A model generated the notes under the pieces. The model was not told the DNA's origin. It saw only the letters and a program-made list of their open reading frames with translations, and ran no database searches. From positions 124,001 through 151,021 of the forward strand of contig MU053859.1 in assembly GCA_013239625.1 (NCBI GenBank): a DNA stretch of 27,021 nt, written 5' to 3'. The number at the start of each line of letters is the position of its first letter. Within the stretch, counting starts at the first letter, position 1. Origin of the DNA: Lama guanicoe. Lineage: Eukaryota. This document shows, piece by piece, positions 17,401 through 26,893 of the stretch. Position numbers and translations under genes: made by a program.

Positions 17401-18647
17401 AATATTTAAACGTTTAAAATGAACTTGAAAATGTGTCATACAAATGTCATATTTGGAGGGTATACATTATCTTAAGGTGAGGGAAAAAAAACTACAATCT
17501 CTGTTTAAATTTCCTCGCCACAGAGAAAGGAGGGGAGGGACAATTTAGGAGTTTGGGATGAACAGACACACCTACTGTATATAAAATAGATAAACAACAA
17601 GGGCCTAGTGTATAGCACGGGGAACTATATTCAGTTTCTTATAACAAGGTATAGCAGAGAAGAATTTGAAAATATATGTAATTATATTTTCTATATAGTT
17701 GAGAAACTAACTGGAACTGACATTGTAAGTCAACTACACTTCAATAAAAAGATAAATTAAAAACATTCATATTGCCACAAAAAAATTAATAAATTGCCTT
17801 ACCATGAACACATGTTTAATTATCTGTAAAAAACTGGACGTGTTGATTCTAAATTAGGAGTCAATGTGCTTTATTTGCTATTTATTAAATACTCCTCTTA
17901 ACACTTCTGTTCCAAAACTATAATTCATATAATAATCACATTAATTAAAACATGTCCACTAAAATCTGTCATTTACCTTTATGTACATCTTGACTGAATT
18001 AAACAGATAATATTCATTGTGACTGAGGCCCAGGAAGGAAAAATATAAGTACCAAAATACCAAAATAATTGAATGACAGTAAAAATGAGTGCCTCATGTA
18101 GAAACATAAACAAGATTGAGTACTGCAGCCATCTATTTTCCTAAATGTTGTTTGAAATAAAAGTTGTATATCTATGTCAATTCGTGAAACAAAACTCAGG
18201 TGCCAATCTTTATGATTATAAACTTTGCTTCGATTAAGGAAGCATTATAACACTTTCATAATTTTTAACCCAGATCAAGTCAAATCTGATCCATTATATG
18301 CTCAATTGAACAATATTTATAAACGTATAATCACATGCCAGGAACTGGGCTGGATGTAAGCGTTGCAGAGAGAAAACTGCCCAGCCGATGGGGAGACATC
18401 TGTGTAAGCCTATTATTTCAGAATAAGTTCATGAATTTTCTGAGCAGTAAATTCTAGTTCAAGTTCTTAAAAACTTCCCATTAAAAGCCTAAGATTACGA
18501 GACCCACAGAAAATTCTCACTGTATCAATTCCTACCTTTGCATGTCCACTTGTGTTGGCAGTGGTAGGGATGTTTCCTTGGCTTCTTCACCATTGCTCTC
18601 TCTGTGTTTTGACTCTGTCCAAACTTTCTATAAATAGAATAATCCAT
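8283..18647 (-). CDS. Killer cell lectin-like receptor, KLRB1(NKR-P1)/KLRF-like type II membrane protein, 244 aa, 6 exons
   Basis: Exons of 112+99+117+155+113+139 = 735 nt, open throughout: MDYSIYRKFGQSQNTERAMVKKPRKHPYHCQHKWTCKDYPECPKWHQTALRLTSIALILLVVAVLGLTTWVSHLSTYSCSEMFGSENGTKECNCMKFSPRKQQDNTNFTKKPSLNLCLNDWVQKEEKCYNFFRTFKSWIDSQKACSITKSHLLIIQDKAELDFVQSNIQDGIYFWIGLNITYPQKAWTWLDSTPLNLQLFEVQGEVEGNACAVITKKGVFAEKCLLQSYWICQNVISSSTDDDL*. All six CTLD cysteines present; WHQxALxL pre-TM motif as in NKR-P1; FWIGLN; phases 1,1,1,0,2. Confidence 0.93.
8776..9135 (+). mobile_element. MLT1A-type (MaLR) solo LTR
   Basis: Diagnostic segments gaatgggattagttccttataaaagg, ccagaactgt, gttatagcagtctgaacagactaaga; ~360 bp; in intron 5, antisense to the receptor. 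Confidence 0.88.
9908..9943. repeat. Perfect 18-bp tandem duplication
   Basis: tttccatttatagcatta x2. Confidence 0.9.
10131..10243 (-). CDS. KLR-like receptor exon 5 (WIGL)
   Basis: Acceptor cctttcacag|GAT; donor TT|gtgagt. Encodes DFVQSNIQDGIYFWIGLNITYPQKAWTWLDSTPLNLQ(L). Confidence 0.93.
10775..10940 (+). mobile_element. MIR SINE
   Basis: ctcataaggttattgtgag...acagtgcctggcatatggtagg matches the MIR 3' half. Confidence 0.8.
11023..11177 (-). CDS. KLR-like receptor exon 4 (N-terminal CTLD)
   Basis: Acceptor ttttctatttcag|AA; donor CTG|gtaaga. Encodes KPSLNLCLNDWVQKEEKCYNFFRTFKSWIDSQKACSITKSHLLIIQDKAEL. Confidence 0.93.
11470..11620 (-). mobile_element. MIR fragment
   Basis: aagtaactcactcaaggtcatatagctaataagtgg resembles the reverse MIR core. 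Confidence 0.65.
14771..15488 (+). mobile_element. ERV1-type solo LTR (family not identified)
   Basis: TG...CA termini with an imperfect terminal inverted repeat (TGTTGAAACCGAGTT / AACTCGGGTTGGACGACA). AATAAA at 15401-15406 is followed by a U5-like tail. No clear TSD. Confidence 0.75.
15682..16188 (+). mobile_element. MER34-like ERV1 solo LTR
   Basis: Starts TGAAAGGGA..., contains ttttaagctgaagac..ttgaga..agcagatacagg, ends aataaac...tctcctgttaatc...tcctcccctaCA, as in MER34-type LTRs. Confidence 0.75.
16213..16329 (-). CDS. KLR-like receptor exon 3 (stalk)
   Basis: Acceptor ttttcttcatttcttag|TA; donor A|gtgagt; 117 nt, phase 1-1, open. Encodes VSHLSTYSCSEMFGSENGTKECNCMKFSPRKQQDNTNFT with Cys residues and N-glycosylation sequons NGT and NFT. 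Confidence 0.85.
16608..16780 (+). mobile_element. MIR SINE
   Basis: ctgtgtgatctt...cctctctgttccacagtttcttcatacataaaacgggga matches the MIR core. Confidence 0.75.
17276..17374 (-). CDS. KLR-like receptor exon 2 (transmembrane)
   Basis: Acceptor attcttacag|AT; donor G|gtgagt; 99 nt. Encodes (D)YPECPKWHQTALRLTSIALILLVVAVLGLTTW. Confidence 0.93.
17521..17790 (+). mobile_element. 5'-truncated cetartiodactyl-type L1 3' end
   Basis: ggagtttgggat..acagacac...tatataaaatagataaacaacaag...tatagcacggggaactatattca...caactacacttcaataaaa plus an A-rich tail. Degenerate 14-bp TSD at 17507-17520 and 17791-17804. Confidence 0.88.
18300..18425 (-). mobile_element. L2 3'-end fragment
   Basis: aacaatatttat...atgccaggaactgggctggatg resembles a reverse L2 tail. 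Confidence 0.5.
18536..18647 (-). CDS. KLR-like receptor exon 1 (cytoplasmic tail)
   Basis: Strong Kozak context aacATGG; donor AAG|gtagga, phase 1. Encodes MDYSIYRKFGQSQNTERAMVKKPRKHPYHCQHKWTCK. Confidence 0.85.
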
Positions 18648-18737: not shown

Positions 18738-18811
18738 AACCACAAAGGATATGGTTTAAGTTGGGGGAACTTCATTGTTTGAATGAGTGTTTTCTTTCAG
18801 GATATTTTATA
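18738..18811 (-). promoter_or_regulatory. Putative proximal promoter of the KLR-like gene
   Basis: RUNX motif TGTGGTT (18738-18744) and TATAAAA (18805-18811) on the minus strand, 90-165 bp upstream of the ATG. Motif evidence only. Confidence 0.4.
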
Positions 18812-19810
18812 GAAAAATTGTGAAGGTAATACAGACAGAGTTGCCATATACCCAACACCCAACTTCCTCTATTATTAACATACTACATTAATATGGTACA
18901 TTTTTTGAAACTTAATGAATTAATGTTGATATGCTATTATTAATTAAAGTCTATACTTATTCAGTTTTTCCCTAATACCTTTTTCTTTGTATTTACCTAA
19001 CACCTTTTTCTAATCAAGGGTCCCATTCAGGATGTCACAATGCATTCAGTCCTCACGTCTCCTTGGGAGTGACAGTTTCTCACTCCTTCCTTATTTTTGA
19101 TTATTTTTAACAGTTCTGAGAAACGTTGCTCAGATATTGTGTAAAATGTTTCCAAATTGAGATAGTCTAATGTTTTTTCTCATCATTATATTTGGGTTAT
19201 AGGTTTTTGGAGGAAGACCACAAGATAAATTACCATTCTTAGCACACTTTACTAAGGGTACATACTATCAGCATGACTGCACTTGACTGCAACAGTGTTT
19301 GGAAGTTTTATCTACTGCAGAGTTACTCTTTGTTCCTCATTTCCATGCTGTACCCCTTGGAAAGAAGTCAGTGTGTGCAGTCCACACTTATGCCCCACCT
19401 CTTTCAGAACGGAGCATCTACATAAATCATTTGCAATTGTTCTGCAGAGGATACTTGGTTAGTGTCTCATTTACTTATTTATTCAATCATTTCTATCAGT
19501 AAAAATCATGCACATTTATTTTACATTTTGAGTTATAATCGAATACTACTTTTTTGTTCACATTGTTCCAGCTTTGGCCACTGGGAACTCTTTGAGTTGG
19601 CTCCATGAGTTTACACTGATGTCTCCACCTCTAATACATTACATCATGGGCCAGGCTAATCTCCTTATTTGCATTTTTATAATCTCCCACTCCAATAGTG
19701 AGAAACATGGCTACCACCGTCACCATTCATTTACTTAATTGTTCAATTCCAATATATGTATTTAGTGGTTTCAGAGATGATATCCCATATCATGTGAGAA
19801 AATATTTTAT
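18800..19810 (-). mobile_element. L1MD-type ancient L1 3' end (distal part)
   Basis: agaaaaattgtgaaggtaatacag...ggaggaagaccaca...catactatcagcatgact...ttgttccagctttggccactgggaactcttt match L1MD/L1MC 3' UTR consensus as recalled. Confidence 0.82.
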
Positions 19811-20760
19811 TTCTTACAAAACATCTGATCTATCCAAAGCATCCATTGAGACATTTGGGCCATGATTCATTAAATAATACAAACATTAACTTTGTTAAAA
19901 TTTTGTGTTTTTATTATTATAATTCATGACAAATTTTAGATTTCACATTTATCCTTGCTCTTTCTCAAATGAAGTTTGGCAGGGTTACTCCTAAATCCAT
20001 GAGCAATTTTTCTCAATTGTTGGTTTTTTGTTTGCTCTGTTAACAATTTTGTATATACAAATTTGATTTTGTCATTATTTTCGTGACTGTGGTGGCCATA
20101 TTTGAATGTGACCACTAAGAACCTGGGTGATAACTTGTTCATTGCTTTGCTGTTGATCTTTCAACACTTCAGTGGATCTCCAAATTGAAGAATAATGCAC
20201 TACCATCAGCTCTTGAATTTTGCCAGCCTTCTGCTGAGTTGTTCTTCCTGTGATCACTGTTCAGTACTGACGTATAAACATTCTAAATTCCTGGTAGAAA
20301 TCTTGGAACTTTTGATCTTCTTCTGCCCCCACCATGCTGTCCATGGACATACACTCTCTCAGCATAATCCATTAGATTGTCTAAATTCTCTTCTGCATTC
20401 TCCACAATGTACTCACAACTTTCATTTACATCTTCTAAAGGCACAAGTGGAAGCCCAAACAATATGGTGCACACTTACGGGTTAACCATTGTCATAAACT
20501 CACATGTCAGACCCAAAGACTTTATATATATACATACATACATATAGCCACAGTGATTGTGAAAAGTGAAACAAGCATTCTTTACTTGCTCATTTTGTAG
20601 GAGCAGTCAAATTGTGTTTGTATTTGCATACAAAATCCATCATGCACATTGAAGGGTTAATGTCGAGATTTCTTTCCTGTGCAAATACAGATATTTTCTT
20701 ATATACATATGTAAGTCTTGTCTTACCTTTTCATTGTTAGTGCATAAATCAACGGAACAT
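19811..20760 (-). mobile_element. Fossil Mutator-like (MULE/MuDR) DNA transposon fragment with disrupted transposase
   Basis: Minus-strand translation across stops and frameshifts: VPLIYALTMKR*DKTY (from 20758), NPSMCMMDF (Asp 20637-20635), CLFHFSQSLW (CxxH 20577-20566), GLPLVPLEDV...LMDYAERVYVHG...PRFLPGI*NVYTSVLNSDHRKNNSAEGW (Glu 20231-20229), HYSSIWRSTEVLKDQQ, LRKIA. These are MULE transposase motifs in the expected order. Confidence 0.85.
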
Positions 20761-21098
20761 CATAGGTTCACTGCCCTAAAAGAAGCCCCTGTGTTTCACT
20801 TTCCAACCCTATCCCTCTCCCAAACTCTGATAATATTTACCTTCTCTACAGTTTTGCCTTATCCAGACATCATATAAATGAAATTATATAGAATAGGGCC
20901 TTTTCAAACTGACTCCTTTCAATAAGAAATATTCATTGAAGATTTATCTATATGTTTTTGTGGCTGGAGAGCTCATTTTTGTTGTTGCTGTTCCCAGCAT
21001 ATGAATGTACCACAGTTTGCTTATCCATTCTCCTCCTGAAGGGCATCTTAGCTGCTTCCAGCTTATGGCAGTTATTATGAACATTCATGTACAGTCTT
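20761..21098 (-). mobile_element. L1MD-type ancient L1 (proximal part, continues the 18800-19810 element)
   Basis: ttcactgccctaaaa...ctacagttttgcctt.tccaga...gtaccacagtttgcttatccattc...gaagggcatct. Confidence 0.8.
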
Positions 21099-21206
21099 CT
21101 GTAGCATTCCATTGTATAAATACATCGCAACTTCTTCATCCAGGCATCTGTCAATGGACATTCAGGTTGCTTCCATGTCTTAGCTATTGCATATAGTGCC
21201 GCTATG
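21099..21206 (-). mobile_element. Short younger L1 ORF2 C-terminal fragment
   Basis: Encodes IAALYAIAKTWKQPECPLTDAWMKKLRCIYTMECY in one open frame; no 3' UTR or poly(A). Confidence 0.85.
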
Positions 21207-24815: not shown

Positions 24816-26590
24816 ATAGTATAGTTTTTCCCTAATTAGAATTTTTGTCAAGGTTCTATTCTTTCACTGCCTGATTAATGCTTCTCCAACACAGTATCTT
24901 CAGACTGACCACAAGCATCAGATCTTTTGAAATCAACTCTTAGGTAACACCTCGTTCAGATACTCATTTGTGTAAACATAACAAATAAACAAATATCTGA
25001 TTAATGCCTATGATCTGTAACTGTCTGAAGTAACTGAGAGTTTGTTTTGGAACGTGTGTTGATTTTGCCACTCCACTCTTGACATTGGTGGTGAAAAACT
25101 GATGGTAAAAAAAATTCTTCTCGGGGAGACAGGAGAAGATGGCGGAGTAGAAGGGTCCTCGCAGCTCACCCTCTCCCACAAATACACCAAGACCCACATC
25201 CACAGACCCACTCAGCCAACCAGAGCACCTGCGGATCTCCGACAGAACATCGCCCTCTTCAAAAGATAAAGACGCCCAAAATCTGGTAGGAGAAAAGGCA
25301 AAAAGAAAGGACAAAAGGCAAAGCAGCGCGGGACGGGTCCCGCGGGGAGGGAGCAGCAAAGGAGGACTGGCACTTGCTCGCTGGGTCTCCCCTCTCCAAC
25401 TGAGAGGCCAGCGGGACGGAGTGGGAGCCTCCGAGGCTCGGATCTGTACAGAGCAGCCCTTGTCTGACAGAACAAAGTTAAACGGGCACAGAGCATCCCC
25501 CCGACACCCAGCCTGAGACGCGGGCCGGCAGCGGCGGGCAGGGCCAGGCTGCACAAGCCGGGCGGAGGATGGGGGCGGCTGCACGGAGGCAGCTCTGGGG
25601 GACTGCAAGGGGCTGGGCGCCATGGCTGTGGGTGTACAGGACAGAACAACCTGGGCCCTCCATAAAACAGCAAGGTTGATGTGCTCTCGGGGGAGGGGTG
25701 CACACCCCCATCTCTGAAAACACGCGGAAACTTTTCAGGGGAAGAGAGGCGGGGCCCAGGCGGGGCCGCCATATTCTCAGGCGCTGAGCACCCGAGCGGG
25801 GGCGGGGGCGAAACCTGCATCCGCACCGAAGGGCTCAGCAGCCTCAAGGGCCAGACTGAGACGGGCCTACAGCCCGGGGCAGGTGGGATCCTTCCATCCT
25901 GGTCCTTCAAAGAACTTGCTCCACAAAGACAAACAAGGATCTGGGTCTTGGCTCAGAGCAGGGACGAGGCTGCCCCTCGGTCTTCCCCGAGCCCACCCGC
26001 GGAGCGCGACCAGGGCGGAGCGCGCAGCCGCACAGAGCAGCGGAGCTACCGGTGGCGCAGGTAGAGGGACAGCGGCCCCCCGCCGGTAGGGCAGGAACAC
26101 AGCCCCTGACCGAGGTGCTGGGAGGGGACACGACCCGCCCTCCTGCCTGGCCAGTCTGCAACATCTGACTGCGGCATCCGGAGGGGCAGTGACCCACCCG
26201 CCCGCAGCAGAGGAGAGCTGCACCTGACCCCGTGTTAGGAGGAGGCGCAATCTGCTTGCTGACACGTGCTGGGAGCAGCAAAGAAGAGGGAGCCAACGGA
26301 GGGCCTATGAAAACAAGCTGCGCTTCCAAAACAGGATGAAGGCAGAAAGACTTCACATTAAAAGCACACAGACTCCAGGAGAACACCAACAACACCCCCC
26401 CCTTTTTTTTTAAATCTGTTTTTACCTGTTCTATTTTCTATTACTCTCTTAATTTTTACTTCTTAATTCATTTCTATTTCTATTGGGTATTGATGTCCTG
26501 TTATTGATTAGACACAGGTTTCAAATACATCTATTCATCTCCCGCCCTTCTTTTTTTTTTTTTAAAGGTTTTAAAAGGATGTCTCAACCC

Positions 26591-26613
26591 NNNNNNNNNN
26601 NNNNNNNNNNNNN
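26591..26613. other. Assembly gap
   Basis: Run of N. Confidence 1.
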
Positions 26614-26740: not shown

Positions 26741-26893
26741 NNNNNNNNNNNNNNNNNNNNNNNNNNNNNNNNNNNNNNNNNNNNNNNNNNNNNNNNNNNN
26801 NNNNNNNNNNNNNNNNNNNNNNNNNNNNNNNNNNNNNNNNNNNNNNNNNNNNNNNNNNNNNNNNNNNNNNNNNNNNNNNNNNNNNNNNNNNNN
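26741..26893. other. Assembly gap
   Basis: Run of N. Confidence 1.

Follow-up and report, generated by a model that had tools for sequence, protein, structure and literature searches.

The window, by which we mean the whole stretch of 27,021 nucleotides of guanaco (Lama guanicoe) DNA analyzed here, carries two lectin-type genes arranged tail to tail. A CLEC2-like gene occupies positions 38-1483 on the plus strand, and an NK lectin receptor gene of the KLRF/KLRB type occupies 18647-8286 on the minus strand, with two exons that match KLRF1/KLRB1 chains; we take this to be the receptor-ligand arrangement of the NK complex. The ATG at 18647 is the probable receptor start, with the two exons matching KLRF/KLRB-type lectin receptors downstream of it. 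A GC-rich island at approximately 25100-26450 (up to 66% GC) adjoins runs of N at 26591-26613 and 26741-26893. The feature under study, at 19812..20755 on the minus strand, is a decayed piece of transposon of approximately 945 bp. It lies 1.17-2.11 kb from the candidate receptor ATG, in line with the 1.2-2.1 kb given by a first-pass annotation of this DNA, and it corresponds to the 3′ ~36% of a FLYWCH-MULE transposon of ~2.6 kb, the 5′ ~1.6 kb being absent. Both of its flanks (18806..19811, with a separate deletion of ~0.3 kb at ~19604, and 20766..21083) belong to one old high-copy repeat, presumably the 3′ region of an L1 of the MC/MD type on the minus strand. For the interval 19600-21100, 14 of the 24 listed sequencing runs, under six organism labels, contain 90% or more of its words, and this near-identity makes an assembly artefact unlikely; there were no RNA runs among the listed holders of these words.

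All six transposase motifs of the first-pass annotation, which had described about 270 codons, were located on the minus strand, distributed over three frames between 20755 and 20180. They are PLIYAL (20755-20738), MMDF with the second catalytic Asp (20643-20632), the CxxH motif as CLFH (20577-20566), PRFLPGI*NVY (20306-20274), in which the conserved W has become a stop codon (20285-20283), RKNNSAEGW with the catalytic Glu (20249-20223), and HYSSIW (20197-20180). Alignment to the family frame described below assigns 19949..20755 to codons ~218-491, that is, ~274 codons with 10 frame changes relative to the consensus. The family stop codon maps to 19951-19949 and not near 19936, where a stop had been placed, and it is followed by the AATAAA already reported (19915-19910 in the minus-strand direction, i.e., 19910..19915); the consensus has an AATAAA in the same region, and it is a candidate poly(A) signal. 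The first Asp and the terminal inverted repeats (TIRs) had been described as not visible. The first Asp and the left end are indeed missing, and only these, but the right terminus with decayed subterminal repeats is recognizable at ~19812-19864, with 19812 as its last base. The adjacent flank at 19804..19811 (minus strand) is where the single surviving copy of the target site would be expected, its partner having presumably been deleted.

On its own, the piece is too broken to be classified by profile. Pfam models of any family matched 0 of the 3 window frames, and the MULE model matched neither of two window fragments, results that we attribute to the 10 frame changes; a repeat finder run around the piece returned no TIR pair because the left end is gone. 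The assignment to the MULEs therefore rests on sister copies and homologues. In a tblastn comparison, the Trichuris suis protein P0004 matched the window piece with an E value of 2.5e-37 and a best segment of 88 bits, compared with at most 21.6 bits in 50 shuffled-sequence controls.

A DNA search of the 2.05-Gb guanaco genome with the window piece, in which all 27 candidates were scored, gave 36 matches at 26 loci, 25 of them besides the window, mostly at 67-75% identity. On the 5′ side, the sister copies continue for more than 1.5 kb past the point where the window piece stops. Twenty of the 25 sister loci were taken with wide flanks, and these share a region of ~2.6 kb; the consensus built from them and the window copy contains a single frame of 491 codons that encodes a FLYWCH finger followed by a DDE transposase. 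Its nine stop codons all fall in columns that mix TGA with CAA or TAG with CAG or TGG, which indicates CpG decay. The consensus carries the residues D192, D258, C279xxH282 (CLFH), the W of PETW, and E390, and thus holds the DDE triad of the MULE superfamily as well as the (C/D)xxH that follows the second D and the W that precedes the E; in the window copy this W is a stop. Among 20 natural fragments from the copies that were scanned against Pfam, four matched PF10551 (MULE), all under the cut-off (best E=1.1e-5, on copy L046), and three matched PF04500 (FLYWCH), L049 over the cut-off and L047 and L031 below it; PF04500 matched none of three other N-terminal fragments. When the whole genome was searched with PF10551, one copy of the family, L046, exceeded the cut-off. 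The MULE classification made from the window letters is thus borne out at the level of the sister copies and the consensus, and we assign the family to this superfamily from these residues and profile matches.

Two other observations from the same genome concern MULE-type sequences outside this family. A second, unrelated MULE family is represented at three loci (L178 3146-3478, L179 3410-3715, and L180 3764-4060) that are 67-86% identical to one another in DNA; it has ~30% amino-acid identity to our consensus and no DNA match. A PF10551 match at G000:C55221:10927159-10927407 lies in an open frame of 655 aa without stops and presumably belongs to a domesticated ZSWIM-type host gene.

The ends of the element were examined at 32 loci; both could be called for 26, and six loci with a missing or doubtful end were set aside. 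The 26 elements comprise nine long copies (2.4-3.1 kb), three internally deleted copies (0.7-1.5 kb), and 14 short copies (194-336 bp). Both ends carry one to six repeats of the ATTTGGTCC type in inverted orientation, so that the termini consist of an imperfect inverted core of ~50 bp plus variable repeats, ends that are compatible with the MULEs, some families of which have no TIRs. At their outermost bases the two ends are not complementary: in long and short copies alike, the element begins with G(G/A)TTAG on the left and finishes with CAAGG on the right. Terminal bases of this kind are uncommon among cut-and-paste elements. Over 8 bp, flank identity averaged 0.553, compared with 0.276 for shuffled pairs, and none of 500 shuffles reached 0.553. 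An 8-bp target duplication (at least 6 of 8 positions) was seen in 10 of the 26 elements and a 9-bp duplication (at least 6 of 9) in four, while 12 showed no clear duplication of 8-9 bp; the duplications lie within the 8-11 bp of MULEs. The first-pass annotation, which had proposed collecting copies for their ends and duplications, had overlooked that the piece belongs to a multicopy family with 25 other transposase loci and short nonautonomous derivatives. A search with one short copy returned 157 candidates, and all 40 that were scored matched, giving at least 40 nonautonomous copies.

The family consensus has ~650 bp upstream of the ATG, reaching to the left end (for example, L037:4640-5330), that are relatively GC-rich and contain no long open reading frame. 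When this 5′ region was used as a query from a copy free of insertions (691 bp), all 16 candidates were family copies, and this search of the guanaco genome found no captured host gene in it. The region is without a source elsewhere in the genome. A query with the 5′ region of L049 was swamped by a high-copy repeat inserted there, with 40 of its 5,568 candidates scored. Younger repeats also sit inside several copies (L031, L035, L036, L049, and L050); we take them to be an LTR-like piece, a tRNA-derived SINE, a Tigger-type MITE, an L1 3′ fragment, and a U6 retrocopy, one of the inserted repeats presumably being a camelid SINE. Such insertions are useful for relative dating.

The relation of the window piece to its host repeat suggests how the copy came to be truncated. 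Among 47 L1 loci, five match both flanks and have 253-300 bp at the place where the window has the transposon, which confirms the earlier proposal that the piece replaces part of an L1. The L1 copies resume at 20766, and the junction (20756..20765) joins transposase codon ~217 to the L1 with a possible microhomology of 4 nt. The simplest account is that the full element would have inserted into the L1 first and that a single later deletion of ~1.9 kb, produced by host repair, would have removed the left 1.6 kb of the element, the left target duplication, and ~280 bp of L1. Three other origins were rejected. An adjacent deletion made by the transposase would keep the element end, which is lost here; membership in an L1 subfamily conflicts with L1 copies that do not have the piece and with family copies in unrelated flanks; and a processed retrocopy conflicts with the DNA-transposon ends and 8-9-bp duplications of the sister copies. 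The transposon is younger than the L1 because it is nested in it and because it is less diverged, the Kimura two-parameter distance (K2P) being 0.154 between the piece and its family (878 sites) and 0.29 between the L1 flank and the majority of its 24 best matches (322 sites, where subfamilies may be mixed). Invasion after the L1 had been active, as had been suggested, agrees with this order.

The copies have decayed without selection. The pooled pN/pS over 21 copies is 1.18 (range, 0.74 to 1.9), as expected of neutral decay after insertion. Distances from copy to consensus range from 0.15 to 0.27 over all sites, with a median of 0.125 when CpG-like columns are removed. If neutral sites change at a rate near 2.2e-9 per year, the family would have had its burst roughly 60-80 million years (My) ago.

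The nearest relatives of the family are proteins of whipworms. The first protein search with the family returned three proteins, all from Trichuris. P0004 of T. suis matches the consensus at 323 of 486 residues (66% over 486 aa, or 69% without X and gaps), and further Trichuris proteins match at 63% (P0001), 62% (P0158), 52% (P0002, T. suis), and 46% (P0003, T. trichiura), compared with 45% for the best intact proteins from outside the genus (P0006 and P0185) and 41% for a named thrips protein. HMMER, run exhaustively over 1.84 billion representatives with a natural fragment of 162 aa, gave 4,430 proteins with two from Trichuris on top; names were looked up for 20 of these matches, and most had none. 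Metagenome contigs yielded two distant loci at 28-34% identity. Host contamination of the worm proteins was ruled out, as they are intact reading frames on contigs of 0.04-2.8 Mb and all the mammalian copies seen are broken. As a separate observation, P0002 and P0003 form a pair with 69% identity in which the CxxH histidine is absent and the first Asp motif differs, and they may represent a domesticated gene.

Also among the matches were short open reading frames at 64-86% identity that look like further decayed copies. Signs of orthology among 14 of them were clear only for P0055 and its cluster mate P0172, which has the same deletion: P0055 shares a deletion of six codons and a few substitutions with guanaco copy L050, while many of its other residues differ. 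P0055 thus appears to derive from an insertion orthologous to L050 in some more distant mammal, which suggests that the family exists in other mammals. Insertions shared in this way could date the transfer and act as phylogenetic markers.

In a tree built from 14 of a set of 22 sequences (399 columns, with no named Phantom or Muta reference among them), the mammalian family and Trichuris were joined with support of 100/100, so that the kinship itself is firm. The order inside this clade has support of only 36/59, and an AU test on three topologies, run with too few replicates, rejected none of them (p, 0.32 to 0.70). The tree distance between the mammalian family and P0004 (0.46) equals that between P0002 of T. 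suis and P0003 of T. trichiura (0.46), and two families of T. suis are only 73% identical to each other, which places the mammalian family close to the spread of sequences seen among whipworms. Trichuris contains at least three diverged lineages of this clade, suggesting long residence there. The sampled worms are nonetheless not the immediate donor, given an amino-acid identity of 66-69%.

We consider it probable that the window piece is the remnant of an extinct Mutator-type family of 2.6 kb whose closest intact transposases found are those of Trichuris and which is likely to have reached a placental ancestor by horizontal transfer. Transfer, which we infer from this pattern of sequence similarity, is likely, and the whipworm homologues give specific substance to the earlier suggestion that it might have occurred. 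The donor was probably a nematode of the whipworm lineage, or else a source, as yet unsampled, common to both. By analogy with Muta1 (PMC5499845), as far as that account describes its system, the transposase would have bound the terminal motif and the subterminal repeats, excision would have involved hairpins formed on the flanking DNA, and the 3′ ends would have been joined to a staggered target. A short burst ~60-80 My ago may have left some tens of long copies and probably more than 100 short ones, after which the family would have become extinct. The fuller version of this history, in which an autonomous Mutator family not described before moved some 60-80 million years ago from a gut parasite of the whipworm lineage into the early placental germ line, proliferated for a short time, and became extinct, we put forward tentatively, as somewhat short of an even chance. 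If true, vertebrates would have a clear example of a MULE whose catalytic domain is complete, and the parasitism of early placentals by ancestors of whipworms would have a dated record in the genome.

The chance is close to even that the family is already catalogued, as a MULE-MuDR entry of Dfam or Repbase such as a relative of Ricksha, or as the Phantom element that Marquez and Pritham (2010) reported from the horse, in which case the whipworm link alone would be new; this would be compatible with the transfer that we favor. The 2010 horse element, which we know through PMC6446971 and PMC3169594, may be this family. Frith (2022; PMC9004415) reports 437 MULE-MuDR protein fossils in human, 374 of which RepeatMasker had already found, and the deletion shared by P0055 and L050 points to other mammalian hosts. 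Against a catalogued entry, Ricksha as published (PMC1431705) has 79-bp TIRs and an ERVL/MLT2B internal piece, the latter in the RICKSHA entry alone, and the guanaco family has neither, with its ~50-bp core and variable repeats and a 5′ region that matched only family copies. Dupeyron et al. (2019; PMC6446971), in the text available, find little evidence of MULEs in chordates, list their absence from vertebrates as a question, and detected transposases neither in the vertebrate entries of Repbase nor in the horse Phantom sequence, whereas the consensus here is complete. The text of three supplements of that article contains no mention of Trichuris, Equus, Vicugna, or Ricksha, and its trees and alignments may still contain Trichuris rows. 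Our literature search found no case of a MULE shared by whipworms and mammals, and the available text of PMC8101967 and PMC4079192 has nothing specific to add. The first-pass suggestion of a little-described family other than Ricksha thus has indirect support, from the published features of Ricksha, and the human fossils and the horse element speak against novelty.

Rather unlikely, in our estimate, is a third, unsampled lineage, an invertebrate or a virus, that supplied mammals and whipworms separately without any direct transfer between parasite and host. Approximately a third of the residues differ from those of the nearest worm protein, the mammalian branch is not nested with support inside Trichuris, and viruses are discussed as vectors (PMC6446971 and PMC4079192, in the text available). 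Transposons are under-represented in protein collections, so that some other animal may harbor a closer relative that has yet to be sampled. On the other hand, neither the word-based protein searches nor the exhaustive scan produced such a relative, viral contigs held none (0 of 4 pattern matches), and the diverged lineages within Trichuris speak for a long residence in the worms.

Retention of the piece as a regulatory element of the KLRF/KLRB-like gene 1.2-2.1 kb downstream is highly improbable; its position is all that recommends it, and the window copy does not fall below its sisters in divergence (non-CpG K2P of 0.141 compared with the median of 0.125). The copy is an ordinary dead fragment, and its sequence gives no indication of a present-day function. 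Vertical inheritance from a bilaterian ancestor, with persistence in both lineages, is scarcely credible, for although MULEs are old and widespread in animals (PMC6446971), the identity to P0004 is 66% over the whole protein, linker included, compared with at most 45% to all other intact homologues found outside Trichuris, the copies evolve neutrally, no intact vertebrate homologue appears among the named matches, and there is reportedly little evidence of MULEs in chordates (PMC6446971, as far as its available text goes).

Having weighed these alternatives, we regard the family, which was probably acquired horizontally, as a Phantom-like MULE with every hallmark of the superfamily in a mammalian host, new unless a repeat library already has it. 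According to the available descriptions, it resembles the Phantom group (group 20 of PMC6446971, which includes Muta1 of Aedes) and the Phantom-like Tm1 of root-knot nematodes (PMC3169594) in its N-terminal FLYWCH finger before the MULE DDE domain, its length of ~490 aa, its CxxH and W motifs, its 8-9-bp duplications, its subterminal tandem repeats, and its short nonautonomous derivatives; the finger, a feature of the Phantom group, is recognized here by the PF04500 match of L049 over the cut-off. Muta1 itself makes 8- or 9-bp duplications, and its subterminal repeats raise binding and excision (PMC5499845). The guanaco family differs from the group in its mammalian host and its extinction, and from Muta1, whose ends are 97% identical, in that its outer two bases (left GG or GA, right GG) are not complementary. 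The Trichuris FLYWCH-MULE proteins (P0004, P0001, P0158/P0010, P0002, and P0003; for example, KHJ40130.1 and KFD47203.1) share its domain order and 46-66% identity over most of their length; unlike the family, they are intact reading frames annotated as worm genes, and we found no transposon family described for them. With Ricksha, Ricksha_0, and Ricksha_a, the MuDR elements of placental mammals in Repbase (PMC5753468 and PMC1431705, in the text available), the family shares the superfamily label, the mammalian host, and the fossil state, and it differs, by description and not by direct sequence comparison, in having no 79-bp TIR, no high-copy retroviral 5′ piece, and a complete DDE domain. 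Transfers of transposons between nematodes and mammals are rarely documented, and the nearest precedent is RTE1_Sar, shared by parasitic nematodes and the common shrew (PMC6542046), for which, in the account available, sharing was likewise argued from a patchy distribution and neutral decay. RTE1_Sar is a retrotransposon of strongylid worms found in one mammal at 80% nucleotide identity, whereas the family described here is a DNA transposon, is related to whipworms, and is older.
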